From: an uncultured Eubacteriales bacterium
Lineage (GTDB): Bacteria; Bacillota; Clostridia; Oscillospirales; CAG-272
Length of the DNA: 64,000 nucleotides
NCBI GenBank assembly: GCA_900546695.1
Contig: URDX01000001.1
Location: 15,441 to 79,440 of the forward strand
Direction: 5' to 3'
Position numbers and translations under genes: made by a program. The notes below the pieces were generated by a model. That model ran no database searches. It saw nothing but the letters and a program-made list of their open reading frames with translations, and was not told the origin of the DNA. Shown one piece after another: positions 2,679-34,563 of this stretch. The stretch's first letter is position 1, and each line of letters starts with the position of its first letter.

Positions 2679-2699
2679 CGGGGCTTGCCCCGAACCCCA

Positions 2700-2729
2700 C
2701 TTGAAACTTTCTTGAAAGAAAGTTTCAAG
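2700..2729. promoter_or_regulatory. Perfect 12-bp inverted repeat (candidate operator)
   Basis: CTTGAAACTTTC-ttgaaa-GAAAGTTTCAAG lies about 38 nt upstream of the wHTH gene start. Confidence 0.5.
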
Positions 2730-2766
2730 ACTTCAAAGAAGTTTACTGAAAAGGAGGAAACAATGA

Positions 2767-3207: not shown

Positions 3208-3208
3208 G

Positions 3209-3424: not shown

Positions 3425-3439
3425 CGGTCGATTATTTGG

Positions 3440-3660: not shown

Positions 3661-3669
3661 GTTGAAATT

Positions 3670-4083: not shown

Positions 4084-4088
4084 TTTTT

Positions 4089-5801: not shown

Positions 5802-5902
5802 TTGATAACAAATTGATAACTCTTCGCCTCACCGCTGGATATTCACTCGAACCTGTGGTATCTTTGCAGTGGGCGAAAAAACTTACGAAAGGAAGAATAA
5901 CA

Positions 5903-8515: not shown

Positions 8516-8537
8516 CCGAGGTCAGCCCTTAAAAATT
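8509..8537 (+). terminator. Hairpin overlapping the int2 stop codon (weak terminator)
   Basis: The hairpin is gggctgac-cgag-gtcagccc, followed by ttaaaaatt. Confidence 0.45.
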
Positions 8538-8624
8538 GCGGTGCAGTAGGCAAAAAAACGGAAAGAGTGAATGGCGGTCATTTTGCGGTCGCCATTCTTT
8601 AGGTTTAGAGATCCGATTTTTCAA

Positions 8625-16513: not shown

Positions 16514-16527
16514 AGGGGGATACGGAT

Positions 16528-17550
16528 ATGTATTGGTACACCGAAAAAGGTAAAGACAGCGACGTTGTCATAAGCTCGAGAGTAAGATACGCGAGAAACC
16601 TGCGCGATGTTCCCTTTGTATCAAGGCTTGACAAGGCGGGCGCCGAGAAGGTAATAGAAAAGGTCAGAGGCGCGCTCGACGACGAGAGCGGATGGGAGTT
16701 TACCGACTTTTCATCGCTCAGCGGCGAGCAGGCGCAGGCTTATGTCGAGCGCTACGATGTCAGCCCCGAATTCGCCGCATCCACCCTGCCCCATGCATAT
16801 ATGTATCAGAAGGACAGCGGCGTCGGCATTATGATTTGCGAGGAGGACCACATCCGTCTGCAGTGCATCCGCTCGGGTCTTGCACTTGAGGAAGCGTTCA
16901 ACTGCGCAAACGAGGTCGACGATAAGCTGATAGACCGTCTTGATGTTGCGTTTGATGACAAGCTCGGATTTCTGACCCATTGTCCGACCAACCTCGGTAC
17001 GGGTATGAGAGCATCCATAATGGTGTTTCTCCCCGCCCTTGCGATGAACCGCAAGATAGGCGCGCTCGCGACCTCGCTCGGAAAGCTCGGACTCACCATC
17101 CGCGGCACATGGGGTGAGGGCTCTGACGCAGACGGCTACATGTATCAGATATCCAACCAGACGACGCTCGGCATAAGCGAGCTCGACACCATTAAGAAGC
17201 TCGAGGAGGTCACGGCGCAGATAATGGAGCTTGAGCGCAACGCAAGAGCTGCCATGAAGTCGGACAGTTCCGACCGTCTCACCGACCTTGCGTACCGTTC
17301 ACTCGGCACGCTGCGCTCCTCCTATCTGATGAGCTCTAAGGAATTCCTCAGTCTCTGCGCGTATGTCCGTCTCGGATTTGCGCTCGGATATCTCGACGAA
17401 AACGAGCTCAGCTACGAGAAGCTGACCGAGACGATGGTGCATGTCATGCCCGCAAGCCTTTCTGTAGACGAGGGCAAGCACCTCAGCGAGCTCGAGCGCG
17501 ACAAGGCACGCGCTAAATACCTGCGCACACATCTCGGGGAAAACAAATAA
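16528..17550 (+). CDS. mcsB: Protein arginine kinase McsB
   Basis: It shows the ATP:guanido phosphotransferase pattern (RVRYARNL, CPTNLGTGMRAS) in the expected operon position. Confidence 0.92.
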   Translation: MYWYTEKGKDSDVVISSRVRYARNLRDVPFVSRLDKAGAEKVIEKVRGALDDESGWEFTDFSSLSGEQAQAYVERYDVSPEFAASTLPHAYMYQKDSGVGIMICEEDHIRLQCIRSGLALEEAFNCANEVDDKLIDRLDVAFDDKLGFLTHCPTNLGTGMRASIMVFLPALAMNRKIGALATSLGKLGLTIRGTWGEGSDADGYMYQISNQTTLGISELDTIKKLEEVTAQIMELERNARAAMKSDSSDRLTDLAYRSLGTLRSSYLMSSKEFLSLCAYVRLGFALGYLDENELSYEKLTETMVHVMPASLSVDEGKHLSELERDKARAKYLRTHLGENK

Positions 17551-17657
17551 TCCCCGGGGGGTAGGACATTTTGAGAACAGACGGGATCGTATACAGACCA
17601 TTTAAGAACAGTCAAAGTACAGACAAAAACAATTGATCGGGAAAGAGATGATATAAT

Positions 17658-20195: not shown

Positions 20196-20308
20196 TAACC
20201 TTGCGTAAATGCCGTCACGGTAATGGCATTACGTTAATACCCCAATGGAGTCATTACCGCGAGAAACACCCGCAGGTTAGTTACGACGAAAATCATCTGA
20301 GCAAAATT

Positions 20309-20350
20309 ATCCCGCATCATCCCATTATCGGAATGGTGCGGGATTTTTTT
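20309..20350 (+). terminator. clpC terminator
   Basis: The hairpin atcccgca...tgcgggat is followed by ttttttt. Confidence 0.75.
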
Positions 20351-20456
20351 GTGTTCTGCTATAAATATGCGGACACCGATACGCGGCGCGCCTCGTTGCC
20401 TGCTGCCCTTTCGATTCACTTTCTGTCAGTCTCTCTTTGCCGCTGTGCAATCGCCA

Positions 20457-20978
20457 TCACAACTCAAAGTGCTGCTGACCGCCGTCAAGCTCTGCCGTTC
20501 CGAGATTGATAAGCTCGAGCCCGCACTGCGCGGCGTATTTGACCGTCGCGGCGGTGCCGCCGTTTCTGCGGCTTGACAGGTAGCAGATGCAGACGGAGGA
20601 TGCGTCGACAAGCGCGCGGTTGCGCTCCTGCATGCAGCCCCGACCGTAGCTCTCGCGGATGTACCGCACCGAGTCTGCAGCAGCCGAGATGCTGTTGTAG
20701 ATGTCGATGCTCTCGCTGCTCCACCCCGCCGCCTGATCACGGCACGGAAGTATAAGATGCAGCCGCAGCCCCTGGTATTTATGCCGCAGTGAGAGCACCC
20801 GCAGCGCGGCGAGCGTATCAAAGCCGAGCGCGCCGCCCGCGAAATAATCGAGATATCCACGCGCGATAAGCGACTCCACCGCACAGTCGATACGCGCGGC
20901 GAGATCTGCATACCCGTCACGGGATATTATTCTGTGACCTGTAAAGCAGCAGCTTTTTTCTCGCTCCACCGACCTCAC
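20457..20978 (-). CDS. SLOG-family (DUF1273/YpsA-like) protein
   Basis: It has the N-terminal CCFTGHR motif and a Rossmann-like GGALGFD motif, and is about 170 aa long. Confidence 0.6.
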   Translation of the reverse strand: MRSVEREKSCCFTGHRIISRDGYADLAARIDCAVESLIARGYLDYFAGGALGFDTLAALRVLSLRHKYQGLRLHLILPCRDQAAGWSSESIDIYNSISAAADSVRYIRESYGRGCMQERNRALVDASSVCICYLSSRRNGGTAATVKYAAQCGLELINLGTAELDGGQQHFEL

Positions 20979-21171
20979 CTCGCCTTCCGATTTACCTTAT
21001 TGTACCACAACGGGAAAGGAATTGCAATAGCGAGCATCAAAGGTATACTGCATGACCGCGCTAAAGCTAATGCCGTTCTAAAAGTAATGTTTGCGAGTGT
21101 ATGTAAAAATATTTCGTCCGCGCTGCACCCATGCGGACACAATCCTAATACAGACACAATCCCATATGGAC

Positions 21172-21204
21172 AAAAAATCAGTGCCGACGCAAAAACATCG
21201 GCAC
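21172..21204 (-). terminator. glyA terminator
   Basis: On the minus strand the hairpin gtgccga-tgtttttgcg-tcggcac is followed by tgatttttt. Confidence 0.6.
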
Positions 21205-21362
21205 CGATCTCGGCAAATATTATTTATCCGTACACGTCGCAGGCCGTGCGGTCGGAACGCGACAGCTCACGGCTCGCATACAATCCCCGCGGGTCACCCT
21301 ACACAGACCCACTCTCGCAAATTACCGCTCGCGGGTGCTTCACGCAGATATACTCTCGCGAA

Positions 21363-22604
21363 TTACTGCTCGTAGATAGGATACTTATCGCAGAGTGCGA
21401 CGACCTCTGCGGTTATGCTGTCGCGGCTGCCCTCAAAATCGGTCGCCGTGTGCTTCATAAACCGTGCGATGGACACCATATCCTCCTCGGTAAAGCCGCG
21501 GGTTGTGACAGCGGGCGTACCGACGCGGATACCGCTCGTTACAAACGGGGTCTCGGGGTCGTTCGGAATAGCGTTCTTGTTGACCGTGATGTGCACCTCG
21601 TCGAGGCGGCGCTCCATCTCCTTACCCGTTATTCCGAACGGGCGCAGGTCAATAAGCATGAGATGGTTGTCGGTATCGCCGGAGACGATGCGGAAGCCCT
21701 CCGCCTTCAGCGCGTTGCAGAGCACCTTTGCGTTAGCGACGATGCGGCGCTGATAGTCGCGGAACTCCTCGGTCATAGCCTCGCCGAAAGCGACCGCCTT
21801 AGCTGCGATGATATGCTCAAGCGGTCCGCCCTGCGTACCCGGGAACACCGCCTTGTCTATCTGCTTTGCAAGAGCCTCCTTGCAGAGAATGAGTCCTCCG
21901 CGAGGTCCGCGCAGGGTCTTGTGGGTCGTTGTGGTGACAACGTCTGCATACGGAACGGGGCTCGGATGGAGACCTGCCGCGACAAGTCCCGCAATGTGCG
22001 CGATGTCGACCATCATGTACGCGCCTACCTCATCGCAGATTTCTCTGATGCGCGCAAAGTCGATGGTTCTCGAATATGCGCTTGCGCCCGAGATTATCAT
22101 CTTAGGCTTGCACTCGAGCGCGGTCGCTCTGAGCGCGTTGTAATCGAGCATTTCGGTATCGTCCGAAACGTTGTAGGGGACGATATTGAAGTACTTACCC
22201 GAGATGTTTACGGGCGAGCCGTGCGAGAGATGTCCGCCGTGCGCAAGGTTGAGACCCATAACGGTATCGCCGGGCTGAAGGAGCGCGAAGAACACCGCGA
22301 GATTCGCCGATGCGCCGCTGTGCGGCTGAACGTTTGCATGCTCCGCGCCGAAGAGCTTTTTAGCCCTGTCGCGCGCGATATTCTCGACGATATCGACATA
22401 CTGACATCCGCCGTAGTATCTCTTTCCGGGAAGACCCTCTGCGTACTTGTTTGTAAGTACGGTTCCCGCTGCGAGCAGAACGCCCTTTGAAACGATATTT
22501 TCGGACGCTATAAGCTCGATATTATGGCGCTGACGCTCAAGCTCGAGCGAGCATGCGTCGTACACCTCTTTGTCGTATGCGGCAAGTTCATCAAAAAAAT
22601 TCAT
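21363..22604 (-). CDS. glyA: Serine hydroxymethyltransferase
   Basis: [39 protein letters not shown]... matches GlyA. The ATG at 22604 is preceded by AAAAGGAG. The ORF-track N-terminal extension to 22736 covers the riboswitch. Confidence 0.97.
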
Positions 22605-22635
22605 GTTGCTGCTCCTTTTCGTTGGTTTATCGTCT

Positions 22636-22745
22636 GAAAAAGGGCGCACCCTCCCGCAAAAAGAAGGTGCGCCCAGACGGTCGGCATTATAAGTCCGCTG
22701 CTCCCCCGCGGTCGCCCGCGATATTCCGTCAGTCACAGAGAACCT
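22636..22745 (-). promoter_or_regulatory. ZTP (pfl-motif) riboswitch with intrinsic terminator
   Basis: The minus strand reads GTGACTGACGG...CGCGG-GCGA-CCGCG-GGGGAGC...GCCGACCGTCTGGGCG. The consensus is GACUGGCG...GGGGAGC...CCGCCUGGGC. The pseudoknot covaries as GACGG/CCGTC. The terminator gggcgcacc/ggtgcgccc plus ttttt overlaps the 3' subdomain. The element lies upstream of a folate/one-carbon gene. Confidence 0.8.
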
Positions 22746-22753
22746 CTGCGCTT

Positions 22754-22782
22754 ATTATAGCATACCGCCCGACCGATGTCAA
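22754..22782 (-). promoter_or_regulatory. glyA sigma-A promoter
   Basis: The minus strand reads TTGACA, a 17-nt spacer, then TATAAT. Both hexamers are consensus. Confidence 0.8.
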
Positions 22783-22838
22783 GCCGAAAATGCCGCGGAT
22801 AGGTAAAATTTTCGTTTCGCGCGGAGAATCACAGCAGC

Positions 22839-22937
22839 CTAAGTGCCATGTTGCCTAAGTGCCGCGACAAACTAAGTATCACGCAGCATAAGCGTCACGC
22901 AGGCCAAGTATCACGCGGTCAAAGTGTCACGGCAGCC
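22839..22937. repeat. Six degenerate tandem repeats, about 16-bp period
   Basis: The units are aagtgccatgttgcct, aagtgccgcgacaaact, aagtatcacgcagcat, aagcgtcacgcaggcc, aagtatcacgcggtca and aagtgtcacggcagcc. The last unit overlaps the stop codon of the 22927 gene. Confidence 0.8.
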
Positions 22938-24207
22938 GATTGCCGCCCTCCCTATCCTTAACCTCGCGCAGTGCCCTTATCTCACGTCCGAGTCTGCGTC
23001 TCGCGCCGAACGCCTTGTACGTAAGCCTGCGCAGTGCAAAAAACGGTATAAGATACGGCCTGCGATCGAGAAAGTCATAGTGACGGCGAAACCATGAAGC
23101 GGGCGGGAACGCGCGGCGGCGGAGATAACCGAGCCTGCCGAGCAGGGTCAGACGGTCGCCCGACGAATGCGCCATAATGTCGTTTATGATGCTGTATGAG
23201 ATATTACCGTACGTGCCGCAGGAGAGGCAGAGATCGACAATTTGCATCAGATCCTCATCAAGCCTCTGCGACAGCATATCCGGCTGCACGGGCTCCGAGA
23301 ACAGCGCGTACGCCGCACGTCTGAACAGCGCTTCGAGCCCGTCAAGCCCTATCCTTCTCAGCAGCTCCGCCGTTTCCGCATCGGGCTCCCCGCCCTTTGC
23401 GCGTGCGATGACATAGATGTCACACAGCGAGCGTATTCCCGTCCCGTGAGACAGAAGGTGCTTCCTTATATGTGCGAGGGTATATGCATACTCGTCGGCG
23501 GGGGTCATTCTGCGCGCGTAGCAGCTGCGGTCGGGTGACGTATCATCCCAAATCAGACGTTCTGAGATAGTCGAAAAATAATTCTGAAACAGCTCGATAC
23601 AGTCGGGAGCGATAAGGTCGACATGCATCTCATAGTTATATATCGGCGCGCGCGTGTAGGTATCGTGATGGTAGGTGCCGTAGCTGCTGACGGTATACCC
23701 GCGCCCTGTCATTATATCGCGCACCTGTGCCCTGCCCTTCGGATCGAACAGTATATCGTTATCCGACATCTCGCGCATTCCGACGGCGGGATAAAGCTGC
23801 TTTATGCCGATGCCCTTGAGCGTTGTGTGCCAAATTTTTGCGCGGTCAAGCTCCGCAAGAATCGCCGCGCGCTCGCAGTCAAGCAGCATTATCTTGCGCA
23901 CCGACTTTTCCCTGCGCTCACGCAGCTGCGCGAGTGCACGCGCGGTCGCCTCATCGGACGCGACAATGCCGTCGGATGCGACATTTCGGGATTTGTCGGA
24001 CGCGCTGTGCAAACCGTCTGAGTCGCCGTGCGAATCATAGACCCCCGCAGAAGCGAGTGCGGCGCAGCACATTGCGGAAACGCTGTGTCTCGCTGCCTCG
24101 CGCGCGATCTCGGGGATATTCATCCTCCGCAGCACGGCGGGCTCGGGCGGTATGCCGCCCAATGCCGATGCGAGCAGATATATAAGTCCTGCCTGATTTT
24201 CGGTCAT
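22927..24207 (-). CDS. Nucleotidyltransferase family protein (NTP_transf_5-like)
   Basis: The pattern LKGIGIKQLYPAVGMREMSDNDILFDP...RGYT...HHD...YEMH is typical of the uncharacterised nucleotidyltransferase family found in RiPP-type clusters. Its start overlaps the upstream stop (ATGA). Confidence 0.65.
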   Translation of the reverse strand: MTENQAGLIYLLASALGGIPPEPAVLRRMNIPEIAREAARHSVSAMCCAALASAGVYDSHGDSDGLHSASDKSRNVASDGIVASDEATARALAQLRERREKSVRKIMLLDCERAAILAELDRAKIWHTTLKGIGIKQLYPAVGMREMSDNDILFDPKGRAQVRDIMTGRGYTVSSYGTYHHDTYTRAPIYNYEMHVDLIAPDCIELFQNYFSTISERLIWDDTSPDRSCYARRMTPADEYAYTLAHIRKHLLSHGTGIRSLCDIYVIARAKGGEPDAETAELLRRIGLDGLEALFRRAAYALFSEPVQPDMLSQRLDEDLMQIVDLCLSCGTYGNISYSIINDIMAHSSGDRLTLLGRLGYLRRRAFPPASWFRRHYDFLDRRPYLIPFFALRRLTYKAFGARRRLGREIRALREVKDREGGNRLP

Positions 24208-24668
24208 TTCCGTATTCCTCCCATGCCGAGTGCCCGTGCGGCTCTGCGCGCCGCCCCGATAAGAGCCGCCCGACAGCGCAGCAATGCGATGCGCAGCCGA
24301 TAGGGCTTGCAGTACAGCGACACATACAAGCGATAGCCGAGCCCGCCCGTGCCGTGCTCGCGTCCGCGGCGGGTATACCCCGTCATGACGCCGATGACCC
24401 GCTCCTGCGGAATGCTGCGCTCAACGGTAATACAGTTGTCGCCGAGAATGTCATAGCTGTCACCGTTTACGCGAATAATGCGGTGCAGCACATAAGACTG
24501 CGGCGGGCGGGTATAAAGCACGACATCCCATCTGCGGCAGACCTCGCCGCCGTGCAGCGCGCGGACAGTGAATGCATCCCGCCCCTGCTTTATCAGCGGC
24601 AGCATGCTCACGCCGACATTTCTGTATGTCAGCTCACCGTAGCGCTCCAGATACTCCTCGTAGGTCAT
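24204..24668 (-). CDS. S24/S26-type serine peptidase-like protein
   Basis: It has a GVSMLPLIKQGRD motif of the GxSMxP type, plus VLHRIIRV...ILGDN. It overlaps both neighbours by ATGA. Confidence 0.6.
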   Translation of the reverse strand: MTYEEYLERYGELTYRNVGVSMLPLIKQGRDAFTVRALHGGEVCRRWDVVLYTRPPQSYVLHRIIRVNGDSYDILGDNCITVERSIPQERVIGVMTGYTRRGREHGTGGLGYRLYVSLYCKPYRLRIALLRCRAALIGAARRAARALGMGGIRK

Positions 24669-24922
24669 TCCTCGACGGCACCGACCGAGCGGAGCTTTTC
24701 GATAACCGCCTCCGCGTCGCTGCGCAGCCGCTCGCGCGGAGCGTCGTACTTTTCGTACATAGCGTCGACTATCGCATCAAGCGTTGTATCACTGCGCAGC
24801 TGCTCGACGATGAAAGCGGCTGTTTTGTTGTTGCGTATAACGCCCGAGAATGAATTTGAAATATCGACAAGCACCTGCTCGCCGTCGCTCATGTGCGAGA
24901 TAAATGTATCCTTAAGCTTCAT
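24665..24922 (-). CDS. PqqD-family peptide chaperone (RiPP recognition element)
   Basis: The 85-aa product is MKLKDTFISHMSDGEQVLVDISNSFSGVIRNNKTAAFIVEQLRSDTTLDAIVDAMYEKYDAPRERLRSDAEAVIEKLRSVGAVEE, which follows the classic PqqD layout. The rest of ORF 24665-25330 overlaps the upstream gene. Confidence 0.75.
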   Translation of the reverse strand: MKLKDTFISHMSDGEQVLVDISNSFSGVIRNNKTAAFIVEQLRSDTTLDAIVDAMYEKYDAPRERLRSDAEAVIEKLRSVGAVEE

Positions 24923-25725
24923 TTTTGTTCCCTTTCTGCGGTATTCTGCGCCCAGATGGTTTGACGCATGCCGAGATATGCCGTTATCGCCGCCTGCGGC
25001 TCCATGTTGCAGCACAGCGACCAGAGCGGGACGGAGTCCGCCATGCGGTCGACGAGCGAAAGCGTGCGCGCAAGCGCTGCGGGGCTGTGCGGGCGGTAGG
25101 TCTGCTGCAGCAGAAGCGGGTAAATATCCCGGCGGGCGGCGGGAAAGATGCTGTTGCGCTCCGCGCGCCCGAGAACGCACAGTCCGCGCAGCGGCACCGA
25201 TGTGTCGGTGCCGAGTCGGTGCTTGCCGTTCCACGGTGTGCCGTATGCGATGACTCTGCCGTCCTCGATGCGCAGCAGCGGCTTGTCGTCGTTTATCATG
25301 ACCGCGCGATCGCCGAAATACTCCCGCCACAGCCGTGTGTGCGTTGATTTTCCCGTGCCGCTTTTTGCGGTGAAGATGTAGCCCTCGCCGTCTACGGCGA
25401 TTACCGAGCCGTGAAACAGCACGGTATCATATTCGGGGAGACGTTCCGCTATCGCGCGGTAGACCGCGAGCGTTTCGAGATAGCCGTCACTCGGCGCGGG
25501 CTCGGCACAGTTTGCGGCATTCGCACAATCTAAAGCAGCGGCGCGACGCTCGGCTGTCCTGCTGCGCTCGGAAAGCGTGCGTTCGCGCGCGATGTCGGCC
25601 TCGGACACGTCGACTGTAAAGTCAGCGCTACGGCGGTCGTGACAGATGTACCCCTCGCAATATTTTTCTATGTACGGGTAAAGATTGTTTACCGCTATTC
25701 TTATATCTGCGAGCTTAATTATCAT
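24919..25725 (-). CDS. HPr-kinase-related (HprK-like) P-loop kinase
   Basis: The P-loop is FTAKSGTGKSTHT. Its size and its pairing with PqqD resemble the HprK-related kinases of lasso-type clusters. The RBS GGGAGG lies 7 nt upstream of the start. Confidence 0.65.
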   Translation of the reverse strand: MIIKLADIRIAVNNLYPYIEKYCEGYICHDRRSADFTVDVSEADIARERTLSERSRTAERRAAALDCANAANCAEPAPSDGYLETLAVYRAIAERLPEYDTVLFHGSVIAVDGEGYIFTAKSGTGKSTHTRLWREYFGDRAVMINDDKPLLRIEDGRVIAYGTPWNGKHRLGTDTSVPLRGLCVLGRAERNSIFPAARRDIYPLLLQQTYRPHSPAALARTLSLVDRMADSVPLWSLCCNMEPQAAITAYLGMRQTIWAQNTAEREQK

Positions 25726-25750
25726 TCCGCCGCCTCCCTTTTCTGCAAAT

Positions 25751-25780
25751 ATTCTATCACGGAACGACCCGCGCCGTCAA
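25751..25780 (-). promoter_or_regulatory. Promoter of the kinase-PqqD-peptidase-NTase operon
   Basis: The minus strand reads TTGACG, an 18-nt spacer, then TGaTAGAAT (extended -10). Confidence 0.5.
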
Positions 25781-25800
25781 CCGTTTTTGTGTGCCCTGCA

Positions 25801-27075
25801 CTATTTTTCCGCGTTCTCAGGCTGCTCGTCTTTCTTGTCGGAAGAAGCTTCGGGCGCTTTGTTCTTTGCATCGCCTGCATCGGGTGTGTTGTTCTTGCTG
25901 TCTGATACGGGGTCGCCATCCGATGCGGGCGTGTTATCTTGTGCGGGCATGCTGCCTACGTTGCGTTTTTTGCGTTTTGAAATAAGCACGAACGCAAGGC
26001 AGCCGAGCGGAATAATAATTGCTGCGCATATCGCGAGCTTAACGCCGAGCGTAAGCCCGCCCGTGCCCGATGTGCCGTCCTGTGCTGCGCCGTCAGACGC
26101 GGTCGTTTCGGCGGGAGCTGCTGGGACATCATAGCTGCTCTCGCCGCCCGCGCCGTTGGGATATACGACGGTCGCGCCGTCGTTTTCGACACGAACGCGG
26201 TCGCCGTTCTCGTCTGCGATTATCGAGCCGTCGCCGTCGTCGGCTATGCCGTACTTCTTGCTGCGGTCTATCACGGTGACATTGCTGTCGCGGTCGACCA
26301 TGACGAGATTTCCCGTATTGTCGACGGTAATGACGCTGCCGTCGGCTGCGGGTATGCCCTTGTCGGTAACACCGTCGATGCCGCCGTCTTCCTGAAAGCC
26401 CGCGCCGCTGTTACCCGTGCTGCTGCCCGCGCTGCCCTTGTTTCCCGAGCCGCTCGTGCTGCTGCCCGCATTACCGTTTCCGCTTGTGCTGCCGCCGTTG
26501 CCTGTACCGCTGTTTCCGTTATTACCGGCGTTGCCGCCCGTGTTGCCCTTGCCGTCAGTGCTGCCCGTTTCGCTGCCCGATTTATCATCGGTGCGTGGCG
26601 CATCGGTCTCGGACGGAGCGGGGTCATTCGCCGTTGTATCGTCAAAACGGTTGACCTTGTCGGGGTCGACATAGACGGGATAATCCTCTATAATGACGCA
26701 CCCGCTCGGCACGCACGGCGAGATGCTGCGCGACTGCAGAATTACCACCCGCAGCTGTGTCAGAGCGGTGAGCAGTGCATCGTCTATCGACGTGAGCGTG
26801 TCGGGCAATGTCAGCTTTTTCAGCGGGAGATCGGAGCGGAATATGCGTCCGCGAATCTCGGTGACCTTTCTGCCGCCGAGGCTGTCGGGGATAACTATCT
26901 CGCTCTCCGAGCCGAAATACCCGACTATCGCCGCCGTATCGCCCGATATTGTATACTTAAAATACCCCTCGGAATATACGGTATCATCCGCCGCAGAGAG
27001 CGGCAGCAGCGAGAGCAGCACCGACAGCAGCAGTATCACCGCCGTGCATATGCTTGTTTTTCTTTTGTACTTCAT
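25801..27075 (-). CDS. Type-I membrane protein: signal peptide, BspA-type LRR, G/S/N-rich linker, C-terminal TM and Lys/Asp-rich tail
   Basis: MKYKRKTSICTAVILLLSVLLSLLPLSA is followed by LRR-like VIPDSLGGRKVTEIRGRIF..LKKLTLPDTLTSI. A long GNxGS low-complexity tract follows, then the TM segment LAICAAIIIPLGCLAFVLI. The ATG at 27075 follows GGAGA. Confidence 0.7.
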   Translation of the reverse strand: MKYKRKTSICTAVILLLSVLLSLLPLSAADDTVYSEGYFKYTISGDTAAIVGYFGSESEIVIPDSLGGRKVTEIRGRIFRSDLPLKKLTLPDTLTSIDDALLTALTQLRVVILQSRSISPCVPSGCVIIEDYPVYVDPDKVNRFDDTTANDPAPSETDAPRTDDKSGSETGSTDGKGNTGGNAGNNGNSGTGNGGSTSGNGNAGSSTSGSGNKGSAGSSTGNSGAGFQEDGGIDGVTDKGIPAADGSVITVDNTGNLVMVDRDSNVTVIDRSKKYGIADDGDGSIIADENGDRVRVENDGATVVYPNGAGGESSYDVPAAPAETTASDGAAQDGTSGTGGLTLGVKLAICAAIIIPLGCLAFVLISKRKKRNVGSMPAQDNTPASDGDPVSDSKNNTPDAGDAKNKAPEASSDKKDEQPENAEK

Positions 27076-27092
27076 TTGTTTCTCCGAATTCG

Positions 27093-27130
27093 TTAAAAAT
27101 AAGGATGACAGGCTTACGCCTGCCATCCTT
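27093..27130 (-). terminator. Terminator after the giant gene and small ORF
   Basis: On the minus strand the hairpin aaggatggcaggc-gtaa-gcctgtcatcctt has one mismatch and is followed by attttta. Confidence 0.65.
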
Positions 27131-27151
27131 CCGAGAAAATCAACTATTTTG

Positions 27152-27253
27152 TTAATCGAATTCTGCTCCGCCCTCTTCATTCGAAGCAGTAACTATGTCC
27201 TCGGATTCAAACACAATTACTTCGGTTTCGGGGCTGATATACTTTTCCTTCAT
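27152..27253 (-). CDS. Unannotated 33-aa acidic peptide with lasso-leader-like YxxP N-terminus (candidate RiPP precursor)
   Basis: The minus strand has GAAAGGA, a 5-nt spacer, then ATG. The product is MKEKYISPETEVIVFESEDIVTASNEEGGAEFD followed by TAA. It lies 26 nt after the giant gene stop and 21 nt before the terminator hairpin. It is below the ORF-track length cutoff. Confidence 0.45.
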   Translation of the reverse strand: MKEKYISPETEVIVFESEDIVTASNEEGGAEFD

Positions 27254-27279
27254 ATAAATCCTTTCTGATTGTATGTTAC

Positions 27280-30200
27280 TCAGTTTCCTGCCGGAGACTT
27301 AACGGAAGCGCCGGTATACAGCGTTTCAATATTTCCTGCGGCATCAACATAAGTAATATATCCTCTTACATACAGATTCTTAGCAGCGGATTTCGGACCC
27401 ATAGATATCGTGAAGCCGTAATTACCCTCTGCAGCAGTAGTAGAAGGATTACTTACATAAATATTGCTGTCTCCGATATTCTCAGCAGTGAGCTTATCTG
27501 CATAGGCATCATTAAACGTATACAGGATACCCGCCTTAGCAAGCTTACATCCTTCAGGCAGCGACCAAGCTACGTTAGTTGCAACCGCAACCTTATTAGT
27601 ACCGGAAACTGCAGTACGCTCACTGACAGTAATAGTTACAACAGCTTCGGGTTCAGGCTTCTCGGTCAAATACATAGTAGTGAGCACAACATCGCTCTTA
27701 ATTATAAACGAGTAGGTTGCGTTCATACTGACACATGTATTACCGACATACCATCCTGCAAAGTACTTGCCGTCTGCATCCATCTCGTCAGCCGTTACAG
27801 TAACGCTCGAGCCGTATGCATACTTTGTCTCAAGCGCAGCACCGTCAACAGTTACGGTATAGAGCTCGCTGTCAGCCACATACTTTGCAAAGATAATAGC
27901 ATTAGCTGTGACACTGATATTACCGTTTGCATTAACTTCAAACTCGTTGCCATCAGCATCAAACCATCCGGCAAATGTATAGCCGGAATAGTAAGGCATA
28001 GAAGGAACAGCAACTGCTCCGACTCCGCCGGTCAGTTTAACATCGCCGGACCAATGGATATCCTTAGTTATGGTATCTCTGAATACGACATATGCGTACT
28101 CTGTGCTGCCGGTATCCTCTACATAGCATGCAGTAAGTCCGGTCTTATCACCAAGTATAAAGCTATACTCGGGAGCTTCGGATACGACCTTATTCTCCGC
28201 ATTAATCCAATAGAGGAACTTGTAGCCCGCATTCGGAACAGCGGTTATCGTAAACGAAGTACCCTTAGAATAGAGCTGGTCGATAGCAGGACCGCTCCAA
28301 CGTCCTTCAACATCGCCGTACTTGTAATTTACCTTACCTGCGCCGACATTGACGGAGAGTTTAACCTTTTCAGTACCTCTGAACATTGCAACAAAGTCAG
28401 CGTTTGCAGAAGCCTTGAATGTATAGGCTGCATTCTGGGAAACGCACTCGCTGCCCTTGTACCAACCAAGGAACTCATAGCCGCCGTTTGCGGTAGCCGT
28501 GATAGTTACCTCGGTGCCTTCCTCATACGCTCCGCCGCCGGTAAGAACGCCTGCGCCTGCAGGGCTAACGGTCGTCGTAACGGTATACTGAGGAATCGGT
28601 ATCCACTTTGTATTATCGCTGTCACGGACAAGTATCGTATACTCACCTGTGCTGCTTGTGCTTACACAAAGCTTTCTGTTACCGCTGACAGTGCCGTCAT
28701 CAAAGGTATGAACCTCTGTAACGGAGCCCTCGTTTACGAAAATCTTAGGCTCAAGCTTATTAGCGGTAGTGTAAGTATTAATCGCGATCGAGCTGACCTT
28801 GGTATTGTTCAGTACGAGCGGATTAGCGCTTGAAACGTTAGACCAAATTGCAGATACATACATATCTTTATTGGTATTGTTATTGGAGATATCGCAGTTT
28901 GTCATAACTGCACCGTGTGTACCGTAGAGATTTACGGCAATGTAGTAATTACCGCTGATCTTTACATTGGTAAACTCGGTAGAGGTTCCGCCGCAAAGGA
29001 AGATCGCAAAGCGTGCGGTACCTTCCATAGTGAGGTCCTTAATCTTGATGCCGGTGCAATAAAGCCTATCGTTCGCATTACCAAAGTAAAGTGCACTTCC
29101 GCCCGACTGCATAGGATCGGTCGTGGTTGCGCAGGTAATGGTATAGCCGTTACCGTCAAGCGTAAGACCGTTAAGAGCCTTTACGATATCAATCTGCTCG
29201 GTAAGAGTAATGTTCTTGAGAAGTCTTACGGTATAGCCCGTCTCGACATTACCAAATGCCTCTGCGAGAGTTGCATATGCCTTAACGGAGTTACCATCAG
29301 CGTCAAGAATCTGTGCTGCCATATCGGAAACTGCAACAAAGTTGCCGCTCTCGTCCTTAGCAACACCGACACCCTCTGCAACAAAGCTCGGGGTCTTGCC
29401 GTCGACCTTCTTCTCGGGAGAAACGTTCGGGTCAAAGTCTGCAAATGTACCGCCCTTAATTGCCACCTTAGCGTCGCCGGAAGCAAATGCATCGTCGATG
29501 CAGTTAATGAGGTACATCGAAGAGTCGTTCCACTTCTGGAGAAGCGAGAAATTACCGCCGTTGATAACGAGGTTACCCGACTCTACCTGAACTACGGAAA
29601 CGTTACCGATAAATGTACCGTTCTCGATGGTGAGAGTGCTGTTACCTTTAACATTGAAGGTATAGCAGTCATTTTCCTTTGCCGCAATAGTACCGTTGCC
29701 GGTTACTGTGACATTTGCACCGTCGTCAATCAGGATAAGAGAGTTAACTTTATCCCAAATATCTGCGGTGTTTCTGATTGTGTAACCGCTCAGGTCAAGT
29801 GTAATGCTCTTGTTGATAACTATCTGCTCGGTTACGTCAACACCTGCGATAAGGGTTACGGTATCGCCGGCCTTTGCGGCATCAATTGCCGCCTGAAGAG
29901 ATACATACTTTTCATTGCCGTTCTGAGCAACATACACGCCGGTCTTTACGCCGTAAGTACCGTCCGCATTCTGCGTAGGAATGAAGCCAACTGCGCAATA
30001 GTCCTCGGGAACAGCAGTTGTGAATGTACCGCCGGAGACTGCGATAGTACCGTTTGTGTTATCAAATACACTCCCGGTCATGTCCTTCCACTCGTATGCC
30101 TTGAAAGCATAGTTTCCGGTCTTAGCGGTAAACCTTCCTGCCTCAACCTTGACTTTACCAAGATCCTTATAGCCGGGACGATTGATGACGGAGATAGCAG

Positions 30201-33200
30201 CGCCGTCCTCTATCGCACCGTCGTTCTCTGTCTTTTCAACAGGGCCGCCGGTAACGGTGATGGCACTCTTATCGCCTACGATATTCAGGCTGCCTGCGCA
30301 AACCTGAGCACCCATGGTCTTAGCGTTGATAACGCTGTTGTTGATGGTCAGCGTACCGCTGCTCGGGAAGTAAATTCCGAAGCCGTTCGGGACATTGAGC
30401 GTCGAATTAATGAGTGTAACATTATCATTGGTGTTGCCGCCGTTTGTCTCGATACCGCTGTGACCGTTGGCTGTCATGGTGACATTCTCAAACACCAGAG
30501 CAGAGTTGTTGTAGGTAGTAGAACCGCCCATAGCGGAGGGGATGAGACCAACCATCGAGTTACTTATGACCGTACCGTTCATCACGGTCAGTGTAACGTC
30601 AGAGTAGTTAATCTCGAACGCCGCACAGTCAGTGTATTTTCCGGTGTATGTCCAAGTATGACCGCCAAGATCGATGGTAAGATTCTTGCTGCCGGAGTTC
30701 TGTACCTCACCGGTGGTGTAGTCACGCAGCAGATAGAGCGTCTTACCAGAATCAAGAGCAGCATGGAAAGCCTCGTTCATCGTGTAGTAGGAGGTGTCGC
30801 CTACCTTGGCAAGGTAAGCTTTTTCTACACCGAAGGTGCCGTCAACATTTGTCTTAACAGCACTTCCCTCTACTACATACTTGGCAGGATCCTTCTCGAA
30901 TGTACCCGCAGTTACCTCGATGGTAGCCATAGCAGTTTCATCGGTAGGAACCAAACCGTCTCTGTAGGTATATGTGCCGAGCGTTCCGGTGACAGTACCA
31001 CCCTTAACGTAGATACGCGCCTGCTTATCGGCAGCGCTGTCATAGTTTACGGAAGCAACATTGCCGTTTACGGTACCGCCGCTGATTGTGAGCGTACTGT
31101 AAGCAACACCCGTGCTGTATGCCCAAGAGGAAACAGTACCGTTAACAGTACCGCCCTTAATATTAGCAGCGCGCCAGTTTTCAACAGCATAGCTGTTAGC
31201 AGAGTTAACTACACCGCCAAGGAGATGCAACGTACCGTAGTCAACCTTGATTGCAACAAAGTTATCCTGAGTAAATGTACCGCCGGTTATTGTCAATGTA
31301 GGGTTGGCATCGCGTACGTTATCGTTGCCGAGGCGTACAAGAGACGCGCCCTTACCACTCTTTGTACCGCTGTTATTTATAACGTTACCGCCCTCAAATC
31401 TGAGGAAGCCGTACTCACCCTGAATATCAATTACATAGTAGGAGCTGACACCGGAGTTTTCTGCGGTATCCTCACGCATGATGGTACCGGTCTGACCCGC
31501 GCTGCTGTCCATGATTGTAACTCTCGCGTTATCAATCTTAACAGCGGCTTTCTCCTTGACCTGTCCGCCGTTGATAGTAAATCCGTTAAGATCAAGTATC
31601 AGATTCTTAGAGATGGTAACATTCTCACGAGTGTCTGCGAGCATCGTAACAGTTTTGCCTCTCGTTGCAGCATTAATTGCTTCTTCGAGAGATTCGTACT
31701 TAATGCCGCCGGTCTCAGCAACATAAGTACCGGTCTTTACGCCGTGAGTACCGTCCGCATTCTGCGTAGGAATGAAGCCAACTGCGCAATAGTCCTCGGG
31801 AACAGCAGTTGTGAATGTACCGCCGGAGATGGAAATCGTTTCGTCGTTAAGATCGCTGTACTTTTCCATGACGGAAGCAAGGCTTGCAAGACCTACAGGT
31901 CCTGTATATTTACCATCGCCGATAATCGTCACTGTACCTTCAGGCTTAGGAGTTACCTCTACTCCTGTATTATCGGTAGATGCAACAGCAAAACCGTGTG
32001 TAGCTGCACCGTTATTATTTGGGACGTACTCTACCTTGGTGGAGGTAGCGGTTACGGTGCATCTGTCAAGTGTGAGGTCGGTATATTTAACCTCAATACC
32101 CGTTCCGCCGTTAACAACACAATTGGTAAGAGTTACATTCTGCATTCCGCCCTTTGTAACAGTCGCGGAAGAGCCGGAAATGTAGATACCGGTCATATCA
32201 TAGTTACTTTCGGCGGGCTCACCCGAACCACCGATAATTGTCGAATCGGTAATCTTGAGTTTAAGTCCGTAATTAGAGCCGTTATGATACAGACCGCAGG
32301 ATCTACCGGTAATATTACTATTGGTAATAGTAATATCGGAGTTATCAGCGAAATCTGCTATTGCATAGCCGGCGCTGACAGTCAGCTTGTCAGCAGTATG
32401 TTTATAACCAAGTGTCTTACTGGAATAAGCAAGACCGACAAGTCCCGCAGACTCAATAGTAAGATTTTTTATTGTTGATTTTCCCCAGACAGCTATACCA
32501 CGCGCACTTGCACTTGTAGACTTGTAGGTTCCGTTTTGGATGGTAATAGTTTTTTCGGCAGACAACGAGTAGCCATTGCCGGAATAACTATTAGCAACGG
32601 TATGACCATTAAGGTCTAAGGTAATTGCTTTGCTAATGGTCAACTTATCAGAAAGCTGAACATCATCAAAAAGCTTTATCGTCTGGTTAGCCTTTACATT
32701 AGCAACTGCTTCTTCAAGAGACTCATAGCAAGCCGAGCCAATCTTTGCAACCAGCTTACCTTCTTTGATACCATAAGTACCGTCAGAGTTCTTGACAAGT
32801 ATGCATCCATCAGCCCAATAATAATCTGGTATATCCCTATTGTAAGTACCGCCACTAACCTCATAATTAGCGTTTGTGGCAGGAGACATGTAATGGAATA
32901 TGGGGTATTTCGTATTCTTAATTCTATATGTACCGCCGGTTATCTTAGTTATGGATGTATATCCGCTAACAAGACCGGTTACAACTACTCTTGCATTAGT
33001 GCTTGAGCTGTTCTGAATGAATTCGCCACCGGTAATTGTCGTATCTCCATAAACAAGAATTGTACCGGTTACTCCAAAACGAGGAGCATAGTCTGACACA
33101 TATTTACCACCGTTAATAACAAGGGTCGAACCTTCCTCGCTCTTAACAACGTTAAGACCGCCGGTGTATGTACCGCTCTTAATTGTAAGGTTGCCCCAGT

Positions 33201-34563
33201 TATCAATCATCGAAGAACCGGTATTGCCCGCAGTAGCAGTAACACCGGTCAGTGTAAGGTTTGCATTGCTGCCCTTTACAACTTCGATGTTATAGTAGCT
33301 TGTACCGCCTACAACAGTACCGTTCGTTACGGTAACAGTCGCGCCGTTCTGAACGGAGATAGTTGCCTTACCTGCGTTTGTGTTCGTCAGCGTCTTGCCG
33401 CCGAGGTCGAGCGTGATGTTCTTGTCAATTACAACATCATAGGTTGCATCCGCAAGAAGCTTAACGGTCTCGCCGTCATTAGCAGCTGCAACAGCTGCGG
33501 CAAGAGTCTCGTACTTGTTCTCGCCTATCTCAGCCGCATAATTAACAGTTTCGGAAACACCGTATGTGCCGTCGCCGTTATCTTTGATGGTGACACCGTC
33601 TGCGAGATAGTCGCTCGGAACTTCGGAAGTAAACGTACCGCCGGTGATATTAAACTCTTCCGATACCTTATCGGCAGACGAATCTGCGGAAACATTGAAC
33701 GTTCCGTTTATACCGCTGCCGTTCGCCTCAATAGTGTAATCTGCGCCGCCGCCTTCTATAGCTTTCTGGAGCAGACCCTTTGCGCAAGCTTCAGCAGTAA
33801 CATTATCAAATGTAATGTCGGTTGCCTTGGAGACGACAATTGCTGCCTTCTCAGTCATACCGTTAAAGGTTGTATTCTCAATCTTTATTGTCGGTGCATC
33901 AACCGTACCTTCAGTATAAGCCTTAACACCGCGGAATCCGGTAAACGTACTGTTCTTAGCCTCAGTAACGGTACCGCCGTAGTTCCAAAGACCGTAATTT
34001 CCTTTTGTAGAATTGAGCTTGCAATTATCTATTACGGTCTTTCCGTAACGATTGTTGCACAGACCGTTCGGGAAAGTGCAGTTTGTATATGTTACGGTAT
34101 TATCAGCATGGTTTATATTACGGAGCTCACATGCAAAATAATTGGTAGTGTGTCCGTGGTCATTCACCCAAGTTCCGTTCGGATGAGAGAGGGTAAGGCC
34201 CTCGAAGCTTACATCAATATCGTAAGCCTGATCCCCCAAAGCTGACTTGGGATTCGTAATGCAAAGCTCGGCAGTGACATCCTCGCCGACAAACTTAACA
34301 GCAGTAAGACCTGTAAGTCCGCTCTTTGCAACCTCTATCCAAGCATCGGTCGAAATAATGTCGACCTTGCCGCTGACGGTATAGGTAATAACACCGTCAA
34401 TCGGTTCTGCATTTTGAACAGCAGTTTCAAAGGTGCTGTAAGTTATATTGCCAACCTTGATCGTTCCGCCGTCATCCGCGAAAACCGCGACGGGCATGAG
34501 CGAAAGCACCATCAGAACCGAAAGAATAATACTTAAAACGCGATGTTTAGAATTAATCTTCAT
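27280..34563 (-). CDS. Giant secreted/surface protein: signal peptide, at least 7 right-handed beta-helix modules, C-terminal InlB-B/Flg_new-type repeats
   Basis: The signal peptide is MKINSKHRVLSIILSVLMVLSLMPVAVFADDG. Module junctions of the form GGTF(T)..VP.DY.A.G......DGTYGV.....A.IG...Y.(S/T)L..A...A..G.T(V/I)..L recur. The C-terminus has GGYEFLGWY, GYKFLYWI, GYTFAGWF and GKYFAGWY repeats. No LPXTG motif was seen. Confidence 0.85.
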   Translation of the reverse strand: MKINSKHRVLSIILSVLMVLSLMPVAVFADDGGTIKVGNITYSTFETAVQNAEPIDGVITYTVSGKVDIISTDAWIEVAKSGLTGLTAVKFVGEDVTAELCITNPKSALGDQAYDIDVSFEGLTLSHPNGTWVNDHGHTTNYFACELRNINHADNTVTYTNCTFPNGLCNNRYGKTVIDNCKLNSTKGNYGLWNYGGTVTEAKNSTFTGFRGVKAYTEGTVDAPTIKIENTTFNGMTEKAAIVVSKATDITFDNVTAEACAKGLLQKAIEGGGADYTIEANGSGINGTFNVSADSSADKVSEEFNITGGTFTSEVPSDYLADGVTIKDNGDGTYGVSETVNYAAEIGENKYETLAAAVAAANDGETVKLLADATYDVVIDKNITLDLGGKTLTNTNAGKATISVQNGATVTVTNGTVVGGTSYYNIEVVKGSNANLTLTGVTATAGNTGSSMIDNWGNLTIKSGTYTGGLNVVKSEEGSTLVINGGKYVSDYAPRFGVTGTILVYGDTTITGGEFIQNSSSTNARVVVTGLVSGYTSITKITGGTYRIKNTKYPIFHYMSPATNANYEVSGGTYNRDIPDYYWADGCILVKNSDGTYGIKEGKLVAKIGSACYESLEEAVANVKANQTIKLFDDVQLSDKLTISKAITLDLNGHTVANSYSGNGYSLSAEKTITIQNGTYKSTSASARGIAVWGKSTIKNLTIESAGLVGLAYSSKTLGYKHTADKLTVSAGYAIADFADNSDITITNSNITGRSCGLYHNGSNYGLKLKITDSTIIGGSGEPAESNYDMTGIYISGSSATVTKGGMQNVTLTNCVVNGGTGIEVKYTDLTLDRCTVTATSTKVEYVPNNNGAATHGFAVASTDNTGVEVTPKPEGTVTIIGDGKYTGPVGLASLASVMEKYSDLNDETISISGGTFTTAVPEDYCAVGFIPTQNADGTHGVKTGTYVAETGGIKYESLEEAINAATRGKTVTMLADTRENVTISKNLILDLNGFTINGGQVKEKAAVKIDNARVTIMDSSAGQTGTIMREDTAENSGVSSYYVIDIQGEYGFLRFEGGNVINNSGTKSGKGASLVRLGNDNVRDANPTLTITGGTFTQDNFVAIKVDYGTLHLLGGVVNSANSYAVENWRAANIKGGTVNGTVSSWAYSTGVAYSTLTISGGTVNGNVASVNYDSAADKQARIYVKGGTVTGTLGTYTYRDGLVPTDETAMATIEVTAGTFEKDPAKYVVEGSAVKTNVDGTFGVEKAYLAKVGDTSYYTMNEAFHAALDSGKTLYLLRDYTTGEVQNSGSKNLTIDLGGHTWTYTGKYTDCAAFEINYSDVTLTVMNGTVISNSMVGLIPSAMGGSTTYNNSALVFENVTMTANGHSGIETNGGNTNDNVTLINSTLNVPNGFGIYFPSSGTLTINNSVINAKTMGAQVCAGSLNIVGDKSAITVTGGPVEKTENDGAIEDGAAISVINRPGYKDLGKVKVEAGRFTAKTGNYAFKAYEWKDMTGSVFDNTNGTIAVSGGTFTTAVPEDYCAVGFIPTQNADGTYGVKTGVYVAQNGNEKYVSLQAAIDAAKAGDTVTLIAGVDVTEQIVINKSITLDLSGYTIRNTADIWDKVNSLILIDDGANVTVTGNGTIAAKENDCYTFNVKGNSTLTIENGTFIGNVSVVQVESGNLVINGGNFSLLQKWNDSSMYLINCIDDAFASGDAKVAIKGGTFADFDPNVSPEKKVDGKTPSFVAEGVGVAKDESGNFVAVSDMAAQILDADGNSVKAYATLAEAFGNVETGYTVRLLKNITLTEQIDIVKALNGLTLDGNGYTITCATTTDPMQSGGSALYFGNANDRLYCTGIKIKDLTMEGTARFAIFLCGGTSTEFTNVKISGNYYIAVNLYGTHGAVMTNCDISNNNTNKDMYVSAIWSNVSSANPLVLNNTKVSSIAINTYTTANKLEPKIFVNEGSVTEVHTFDDGTVSGNRKLCVSTSSTGEYTILVRDSDNTKWIPIPQYTVTTTVSPAGAGVLTGGGAYEEGTEVTITATANGGYEFLGWYKGSECVSQNAAYTFKASANADFVAMFRGTEKVKLSVNVGAGKVNYKYGDVEGRWSGPAIDQLYSKGTSFTITAVPNAGYKFLYWINAENKVVSEAPEYSFILGDKTGLTACYVEDTGSTEYAYVVFRDTITKDIHWSGDVKLTGGVGAVAVPSMPYYSGYTFAGWFDADGNEFEVNANGNISVTANAIIFAKYVADSELYTVTVDGAALETKYAYGSSVTVTADEMDADGKYFAGWYVGNTCVSMNATYSFIIKSDVVLTTMYLTEKPEPEAVVTITVSERTAVSGTNKVAVATNVAWSLPEGCKLAKAGILYTFNDAYADKLTAENIGDSNIYVSNPSTTAAEGNYGFTISMGPKSAAKNLYVRGYITYVDAAGNIETLYTGASVKSPAGN
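29939..30038. repeat. 100-bp intragenic repeat, copy A
   Basis: ccggtctttacgccgtAagtaccgtccgcattctgcgtaggaatgaagccaactgcgcaatagtcctcgggaacagcagttgtgaatgtaccgccggaga is identical to copy B except for one A/G position. Confidence 0.9.
31730..31829. repeat. 100-bp intragenic repeat, copy B
   Basis: It matches copy A with one mismatch. The offset is 1791 bp (3 x 597), which is in frame. Confidence 0.9.

Follow-up and report, generated by a model that had tools for sequence, protein, structure and literature searches.

Linear polyphosphorylated peptides (LPPs) form a family of RiPPs (peptides that are made on ribosomes and modified after translation) that was defined from SipW-like peptidases encoded in lasso loci of Bacilli, and about 126 clusters, mainly from Bacilli, were reported in May 2026 (Popov et al., Nat Commun 2026;17:6633, PMC13381572). 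In addition to the precursor LppA and the leader peptidase LppS, the gene set comprises LppB, a discrete RiPP recognition element (RRE), LppK, an HprK-like kinase, LppN, an NTP transferase, and LppD, an MsbA-like transporter, and the precursors share a YxxPxVLxHQxIxFETxxS motif followed by variable C-termini (PMC13381572). Expression of the lppA-K-B-S-D-N operon of Paenibacillus alginolyticus DSM5050 in Bacillus subtilis yielded precursor and core with 1–4 phosphates, all of them on core Ser3, and the precursor is cleaved after T-1 of the "FET" element in a reaction that requires LppS and its catalytic residues S29, H68, and D93 (PMC13381572). In vitro, cleavage of the LppA leader by LppS also requires LppB, the RRE presenting the leader; the unphosphorylated LppA precursor is poorly cleaved, and LppN was inactive in the heterologous B. 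subtilis host (PMC13381572). The main text of that paper does not mention Clostridia, and its February 2019 BLASTP set of 199 peptidases includes few Clostridial sequences, which fall in minor clusters (PMC13381572). Here, we describe a locus in a 64,000-nt stretch of DNA (hereafter, the window) from an uncultured Eubacteriales bacterium (contig URDX01000001.1, positions 15,441–79,440), in which a four-gene cassette at 22927–25725 and the gene for a 33-aa peptide very probably constitute an LPP RiPP cluster in a Clostridial form. The predicted components are as follows:

24919..25725, minus strand: lppK-like gene for an HprK-family P-loop kinase, 268 aa (weak TIGRFAM matches, PF27840, fold)
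24665..24922, minus strand: lppB-like gene for a discrete RRE (PqqD), 85 aa from the ATG (PF05402, hhalign)
24204..24668, minus strand: lppS-like gene for an S26B leader peptidase, 154 aa (BLASTP and hhalign against LppS, motifs)
22927..24207, minus strand: lppN-like gene for an NTP_transf_5 enzyme, 426 aa (PF14907)
27152..27253, minus strand: lppA-like gene for a precursor peptide, 33 aa (leader HMM, homologous peptides upstream of the kinase, ribosome-binding site)
25751..25780, minus strand: promoter-like site ahead of the enzyme operon (consensus match only)

For this locus we established directly the gene content, the overlaps between genes, the folds and conserved catalytic residues of the enzymes, the co-occurrence with a precursor family, and the homology to LppS and LppB. 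In the LPP study the HprK kinase class was set by the models TIGR04249, TIGR04352, TIGR04355, and TIGR00679 and the other classes by TIGR02228, PqqD, NTP_transf_5, and TIGR02203/02204 (PMC13381572), and the window kinase, peptidase, RRE, and NTP enzyme match these same defining models. LppS homologs, LPP RREs, and LppA sequences for our comparisons were taken from Supplementary Data 1 of PMC13381572. The curated matches of the kinase are weak (TIGR04249 ScmC, E value 8e-4; TIGR04352 HprK_rel_A, 3e-3; TIGR00679, 0.01), and its TIGR04249 score is 18.8 bits against a cut-off of 125; the kinase and its relatives are included in the precomputed Pfam family PF27840 "ScmC". An alignment of 24 kinase sequences revealed a Walker-A-like motif, S122-G-T-G-K-S-T128, that is invariant or nearly so. 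Because neither the kinase profile nor the PqqD protein gave a significant match in sequence searches of the PDB, we used a fold search, in which the AlphaFold model of the kinase (predicted local distance difference test score, pLDDT, 92) matched the HprK/P catalytic domain and, more distantly, phosphoenolpyruvate carboxykinase. Judged by the shared TIGRFAM models, the Walker A motif, and the modeled fold, the enzyme is a predicted LppK-type HprK-like kinase. The RRE matches PF05402 with an E value of 5.9e-15, and its best NCBIfam match is the lasso PqqD chaperone (1.6e-8). In hhalign comparisons the profile of its family aligns with 13 LPP RREs at a probability of 97.7% (score 65) and with four paeninodin lasso RREs at a probability of 88% (score 36).

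The peptidase did not match any Pfam model and gave only sub-threshold matches to signal peptidases, the best of them to TIGR02228 at 7e-5. Three elements, G-x-S21-M-x-P, H62-R63, and G76-D77-N78, show little or no variation among 25 homologs, and a Ser-His-Asp set of this kind is the signature of the endoplasmic reticulum (ER), archaeal, and SipW-type (S26B) peptidases. We assign the protein to the S26B (ER/archaeal/SipW) type with Ser21, His62, and Asp77 as predicted catalytic residues. Its AlphaFold model (pLDDT 86.5) has the clan SF fold, matching UmuD′, LexA, Streptococcus pyogenes SipA, Staphylococcus aureus SpsB, and human SEC11A. The window peptidase shares 33% identity with LppS in BLASTP (E value 8e-10), with the GxSMxP, HR, and GD elements aligned with S29, H68, and D93, and hhalign profiles of 58 Clostridial peptidases and of 10 LppS homologs align over 123 columns at a probability of 98.6%. 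The aligned columns include the helix at the N-terminus with which LppS contacts LppB according to the published model. In the window protein the N-terminus is charged (MTYEEYLERYGE) and is modeled as a short helix rather than a membrane segment; a basic, hydrophobic helix pair at the C-terminus (residues 110–146) could serve as a membrane binder. The fourth enzyme matches NTP_transf_5 (PF14907) with an E value of 1.1e-31 and has two motifs, K131-G132 and D149-x-D151, that are conserved among 40 homologs. Components are also found as natural fusions, namely kinase with PqqD (P0049), PqqD with peptidase (P0139), and a dephospho-CoA-kinase-like domain with kinase (P0038), and these fusions support the idea that the components work together.

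A sequence-only reading of this DNA had proposed four minus-strand genes joined by three ATGA stop/start overlaps, and both the listing of open reading frames (ORFs) and the minus-strand reading bear this out, with overlaps at 24919–24922, 24665–24668, and 24204–24207 joining successive enzyme genes. The same reading had given the operon its own promoter at 25751–25780. A consensus-like site, TTGACG-18 nt-TAGAAT with a TG extension (25780–25751), is indeed present inside the 75-nt gap 5′ of the kinase gene, with an AGGGAGG ribosome-binding site between it and the kinase gene; however, such sites are not enriched relative to shuffled sequences (5 sites in 4.9 kb compared with 3.5 ± 2.1), and we regard the site as a plausible promoter of the enzyme operon. 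The assignments as kinase, PqqD, NTP_transf_5 protein, and serine peptidase stood up to hidden Markov model (HMM) searches and structure models, except that the peptidase, proposed to be of a LexA/signal-peptidase type, is of the S26B signal-peptidase type and not of the LexA type. The two defining lasso enzymes, which the reading had found missing, were not found by us either: there is no Asn-synthetase-like protein among the large ORFs of the window, and for the B2 protease, for which no dedicated HMM scan of small ORFs was made, the coding space of 17658–34563 is taken up entirely by other genes (ClpC, YpsA, serine hydroxymethyltransferase, the four enzymes, an anchored protein, the precursor, and a giant surface protein).

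The reading had called the cassette an orphan, which it is not: we identified a putative precursor in the 33-aa ORF, MKEKYISPETEVIVFESEDIVTASNEEGGAEFD, encoded about 1.4 kb upstream of the enzyme genes with an AAAGGA ribosome-binding site 7 nt 5′ of its ATG. The peptide has leader residues Y5-x-x-P8, F15-E-S17, and D19-I-V-T-A-S24 and an acidic tail, NEEGGAEFD. An HMM of leaders from related loci matches it with an E value of 3.4e-12, and it agrees with the family leader at each invariant position. An equivalent ORF was predicted by the gene caller in a sister contig, L087, and small called ORFs near two distant kinase homologs, L001 and L004, encode peptides clearly related to that of the window (MKNTYETPEIEIIKFAHSDIIRTSGEAGEVDIDKGEWS and MEKYVTPELELIQFESEDIITTSGDTFTKEV, respectively). 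The family shares the leader pattern YxxP…F…D[VI]I-x-x-S followed by a hypervariable acidic tail, and the consensus of the Clostridial leaders is MKExYxxPEMEVVEFETEDVITTS. Among 45 distinct peptides, Y, F, and S are invariant and E, D, I, and T nearly invariant, and in each of the 44 peptides with a located motif, the Ser lies at a distance of 16 from the YxxP proline. The tails after the Ser are 7–22 aa long and consist of 28% Asp and Glu, 16% Gly, and 9% Pro with almost no Lys or Arg. Because 10 of the 45 tails, including that of the window, contain no Ser or Thr, the invariant Ser is the only universal target for the kinase. A conserved leader joined to a variable core is the pattern expected of a RiPP precursor. 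When the window peptide is set beside the published precursor motif, the YxxP, F-E-S, and S24 elements are present with a spacing unlike that of the published logo, and we interpret the Clostridial precursors as a divergent sub-family of LPP precursors. No Pfam or NCBIfam model covers them; the StsA sactipeptide leader gave the sole match, which was marginal and non-significant. Two tandem precursor genes occur in some loci (L026, L046, L058, and L065).

To survey related loci, the kinase alignment was scanned against species-representative genomes, resulting in at least 588 relatives, and 80 loci were fetched; a search of metagenome proteins found more than 6,800 relatives. The fetched loci come from Ruminococcus, Lachnospiraceae, Oscillospiraceae, Coprococcus, Hespellia, and others. 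The usual layout has the peptide or peptides 0.4–1.9 kb upstream on the same strand, followed by the kinase, PqqD (+0.5 kb), the peptidase (+0.85 kb), an ATP-binding cassette (ABC) exporter (+1.9 kb), and NTP_transf_5 (+3.3 kb), and L001 and L004 likewise have the kinase-PqqD-peptidase block and then an ABC exporter. We counted components in the 47 loci with at least 3 kb of upstream and at least 5.5 kb of downstream DNA and found PqqD in 44, the peptidase in 36, the exporter in 27, and the NTP transferase in 27; seven of the 47 have the exporter-less form seen in the window. The leader HMM finds a peptide in about 45 of 82 loci. In 29 loci with no peptide match, we looked upstream of the kinase for precursors of other families and found nothing convincing. 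Some genomes have two or three copies of the cassette, as in Ruminococcus flavefaciens ND2009 (L029 and L043) and Ruminococcus sp. RUI288 (L016, L018, and L028).

In five loci a radical S-adenosylmethionine (SAM) enzyme is encoded between the peptide and the kinase or beside the kinase, at the following positions:

L014, 894–2339: radical SAM ORF
L026, 5872–7245: radical SAM ORF
L041, 1932–3377: radical SAM ORF
L043, 8533–9999: radical SAM ORF
L054, 8580–9980: radical SAM ORF

The enzymes of L043 and L026 are SPASM-type RiPP maturases whose best models (TIGR04463, PapB, and CefB-type) are all matched below cut-off. Cys is present in the peptide tails of exactly these five loci, which supports the peptides as RiPP substrates, and the combination of Cys tails and radical SAM enzymes suggests thioether/LPP hybrids.

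Genome neighborhoods, in which the sequence-only reading had suggested looking for co-conserved small ORFs, favor that reading: homologous cassettes co-occur with a conserved small peptide. The reading had also considered that homologous cassettes might always include a cyclase; an SGGxDS PP-loop (Asn-synthetase-like cyclase) protein was found in none of 86 loci, and among 136 other neighboring ORFs of 430–760 aa no family recurs more than three times. Its picture of a cyclase-less peptide-modification system with leader recognition, phosphorylation, and a serine protease matches the LPP family demonstrated in P. alginolyticus, and the description of the system as uncharacterized is superseded by the account of the LPP pathway in Bacilli from May 2026 (PMC13381572). 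By sequence, the window cassette is a divergent LPP member that represents a large, previously undescribed Clostridial clade.

The mechanism that we propose draws on analogy with the published LPP system for phosphorylation and its site, for the position of the cut, and for what the fourth enzyme does. The small PqqD-type RRE would bind the 33-aa precursor through the Y5-x-x-P8 leader motif, and the HprK-like kinase would then place one or more phosphates on Ser24 at the junction of leader and tail. Ser24 is the favored phosphosite because no other hydroxyl residue is invariant across the family, because it lies 16 residues past the proline compared with 15 for the proven phospho-Ser of LppA, and because of the Ser/Thr-free tails noted above, NEEGGAEFD of the window among them. 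The RRE would present the leader to the Ser21/His62/Asp77 peptidase, which may cut between F15-E16-S17 and S24. If the F-E-T/S motif identity is followed, cleavage after S17 would release EDIVTAS(P)NEEGGAEFD; if distances are counted from the YxxP proline, the cut would instead fall two to three residues before S24. An HMM alignment of Bacilli and Clostridial leaders pairs FET with FET, implying a 3-residue deletion. Cleavage after the invariant Ser, with the whole conserved region as leader, was also considered and set aside because many tails would then be left with no Ser or Thr for a universally conserved kinase. The NTP_transf_5 enzyme may decorate or extend the phosphate, by analogy with hexose addition by PsmN, and the predicted product is a short, very acidic, linear phosphopeptide of 9–16 residues. 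Because the operon includes no exporter, export would require a pump encoded elsewhere.

The precursor gene and the enzyme operon are set among genes for surface proteins, and three further features are relevant here:

25801..27075, minus strand: context gene for a secreted protein of 424 aa, membrane-anchored at its C-terminus (same-position homologs in 10 loci)
27095..27130, minus strand: terminator-like hairpin and T-run, directly 3′ of the precursor gene
27280..34563, minus strand: context gene for a 2427-aa surface protein (beta-helix and Listeria-Bacteroides repeats)

The gene for the 424-aa protein lies between the precursor and the kinase, and its product gives only a weak match to BspA-type leucine-rich repeats (LRR_5). 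Homologs are encoded at this place in 10 loci, among them L001 (at 8988–10004), L007, L037, L038, L053, L057, and L066, with a conserved N-terminal motif, YSEGYFKY…YFGSESE…IPD; the published LPP core set has no counterpart of this protein. The precursor gene begins 24 nt past the stop codon of the gene for the 2427-aa protein, a layout that is the same in L001 and L087. L087 is a contig of the same species from a Hadza gut, and we compared its positions 1829–8634 with 27091–34474 of the window. Flanking DNA is about 98% identical between the two and the enzymes are 97–99% identical, whereas across the island that begins inside the giant gene and ends with the precursor gene (27091–34474) DNA identity is mosaic at 75–92% or is lost. 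The giant protein is 2427 aa in the window and 2214 aa in L087, and the L087 peptide, MKEEYMTPETEIVLFESEDIITESGFETDENGDNF, keeps the leader and has a tail unrelated to that of the window. The hairpin, of 13 pairs and a T-run, marks the right-hand edge of this strain-variable island. It is tempting, though speculative, to view the LPP machinery of gut and rumen Clostridia as a general platform for leader recognition, phosphorylation, and cleavage that serves very short, strain-specific acidic peptides, in which precursor and giant adhesin would form a hypervariable island and work jointly and to which radical SAM/SPASM enzymes would sometimes add thioether-phosphopeptide hybrids. If this were true, the phosphopeptide, acting with the surface protein, could for example be a signal specific to the strain or could modify the surface or matrix.

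Several observations weigh against assignment of the locus to the LPP family. On the side of the peptide, the Clostridial leader departs from the YxxPxVLxHQxIxFETxxS motif of the LPP study, and the Clostridial peptides score only marginally, with a best E value of 0.005, against an HMM built from Bacilli leaders. The residue equivalent to the published T-1 of "FET" is variable in the Clostridial peptides (T, A, S, N, C, V, Y, or D), and the cleavage register is ambiguous. No precursor was detected within 10 kb in about 45% of related loci, and in the window another gene and the terminator-like hairpin separate the precursor from the enzyme operon. On the side of the machinery, the RRE has no BLASTP similarity to LppB, the two being linked through profiles only, and no MsbA-type exporter was found in the enzyme operon or in the 64-kb window, where the sole ABC match is an unrelated ATPase at 45581–46387. 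In the published system itself, the steps demonstrated are phosphorylation and leader cleavage (PMC13381572), and the chemistry ascribed to the Clostridial loci would follow from analogy with that system.

Some of these points lend weight to the alternative that the LPP enzyme set has a true substrate other than the 33-aa ORF, or that this is a pump-less, incomplete cluster with no exported product. The missing exporter, the position of the precursor behind a hairpin and another gene in a separate strain-variable segment, and the near half of related loci with no nearby precursor, from which substrates encoded elsewhere appear common, are all in keeping with it. We nevertheless consider it improbable because the 33-aa ORF fits the family leader at all invariant positions, because its leader is kept and its tail diverged between strains whose enzymes are 97–99% identical, and because exporter-less operons recur among the surveyed loci. 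Somewhat less credible still is a role in surface-protein maturation, in which the peptidase would process the giant protein, the 424-aa protein, or both, as SipW does TasA/TapA in Bacillus, and the small ORF would be incidental. The peptidase does resemble SipW and archaeal-type signal peptidases, it matches in structure S. pyogenes SipA, a signal-peptidase homolog of pilus assembly, and two secreted or anchored proteins adjoin the cassette in the window, L001, and L087. However, homologs of the anchored protein occur in 10 of about 82 loci compared with about 45 for the small peptide, the peptidase is translationally coupled to the RRE and the kinase, and LppS cleaves the LppA leader only when an RRE is present. 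Secretory signal peptidases typically carry an N-terminal membrane anchor, whereas the N-terminus of the window peptidase is charged and is modeled with no membrane segment. Finally, decay of a paeninodin-type lasso cluster, with loss of the cyclase and the B2 protease, to a cassette that is non-functional or acts on a lasso precursor elsewhere is the least believable reading, since, although HprK-like kinases, PqqD RREs, and NTP_transf_5 proteins are typical lasso accessories in Firmicutes, the leader has a lasso-type YxxP, and the best NCBIfam match of the RRE is the lasso chaperone, no cyclase-like protein was found in the 86 loci, a dedicated serine peptidase holds the protease slot, the cyclase-less operon recurs in hundreds of species with overlapping frames intact and catalytic residues invariant, the tails are too short and have no consistent ring-forming layout, and the published LPP system functions without a cyclase.

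Several features of the flanking DNA were also recorded. A ZMP/ZTP riboswitch (RF01750, 56 bits compared with a gathering score of 39) is present at 22664–22746 on the minus strand before the gene for serine hydroxymethyltransferase (21363–22736), and a perfect TTGACA-17-TATAAT promoter-like site lies 5′ of this gene at 22782–22754; because it has its own riboswitch and promoter-like site, this gene is a transcription unit apart from the peptide cassette. Direct repeats of 16-nt period (AAGTATCACGCAGCAT-like), three to four in number, run downstream from the NTP_transf_5 stop codon (22874–22931), with a weaker copy at 22841–22866. A stress operon encoding McsA-like (UVR), McsB (arginine kinase), and ClpC proteins, names that were taken from Pfam matches on the near-identical contig L087, is located just downstream of the cassette region on the plus strand (15992–20195), and in L087 a CtsR gene immediately adjoins it. 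Two minus-strand genes, at 38896–39903 and 49015–50622, encode one protein with a dockerin and another with BspA-type leucine-rich repeats, which fits a fiber-degrading, Ruminococcus-like Clostridial host.

With the kinase encoded in at least 588 species-level genomes, LPP machinery would be far commoner in gut and rumen Clostridia than in the set described so far. The much shorter Clostridial precursors should ease synthesis and mass spectrometry, and the HMM of these precursors is a possible addition to genome-mining tools, which currently have no curated model for such peptides. Two features are new here, namely the association with a hypervariable adhesin and the hybrids with radical SAM enzymes, and the surface-protein neighborhood and the hybrids would provide new handles on LPP function.

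Among the known systems that share components with the window cassette, SipW of B. subtilis has the S26B motifs SM-P, HR, and GDN in common with the window peptidase, for which TIGR02228 and NF046067 are the best or near-best matches; the window protein is, however, far shorter, appears to lack a membrane anchor at its N-terminus, is coupled to an RRE, and would act on a peptide in the cytoplasm. The SynChlorMet (SCM) system (TIGR04249–04251) shares a kinase-like relative, ScmC (PF27840, TIGR04249), although the TIGR04249 score of the window kinase is far below cut-off, and SCM combines a PqqD-like protein with the radical SAM/SPASM proteins ScmE and ScmF, whereas the window cassette has no radical SAM enzyme; a literature search on ScmC, SynChlorMet, and the peptide sequence strings found nothing relevant. 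The paeninodin and pseudomycoidin lasso clusters (PadeK, PsmK, and PsmN; PMC6993621) resemble the window in having an HprK-like kinase that acts on Ser, an NTP_transf_5 protein, and a PqqD RRE that reads [Y/W]xxP. PsmN adds one or two hexoses to phospho-Ser (PMC6993621), and its D134 and D136 pair, mutation of which inactivates the enzyme, is resembled by D149 and D151 of the window protein, a likeness at the level of motifs. Paeninodin-type lasso clusters differ in encoding a cyclase and a transglutaminase-like B2 protease where the window has a serine peptidase and neither lasso enzyme was found, and their phospho-Ser is at the C-terminus, whereas that of the window is predicted at the leader/core junction.

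The LPP clusters of Bacilli are closest. They have the same enzyme set (an HprK-like kinase, a PqqD RRE, a Ser-His-Asp leader peptidase, and an NTP_transf_5 protein), the order lppA-K-B-S-D-N equals the usual order in the Clostridial relatives, and both are without a cyclase; in both, the precursor has YxxP, an F-E-T/S element, a conserved Ser, and a hypervariable C-terminus. The differences are that the proline-to-Ser distance is 15 in LppA and 16 in the Clostridial peptides, that in the Bacilli precursors compared the tails are longer, with an abundance of G, N, P, and K, whereas the Clostridial tails of 7–22 aa are acidic and rich in Gly and Pro, that an lppD exporter is present in Bacilli and missing from the window operon, and that the gene neighbors are for capsular polysaccharide in Bacilli and for giant surface proteins in the window. 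Some Clostridial relatives, in addition, have a radical SAM/SPASM maturase. Taken together, the comparative data place the window cassette, as far as sequence and profile comparisons indicate, in a large Clostridial sister group of the LPP family.

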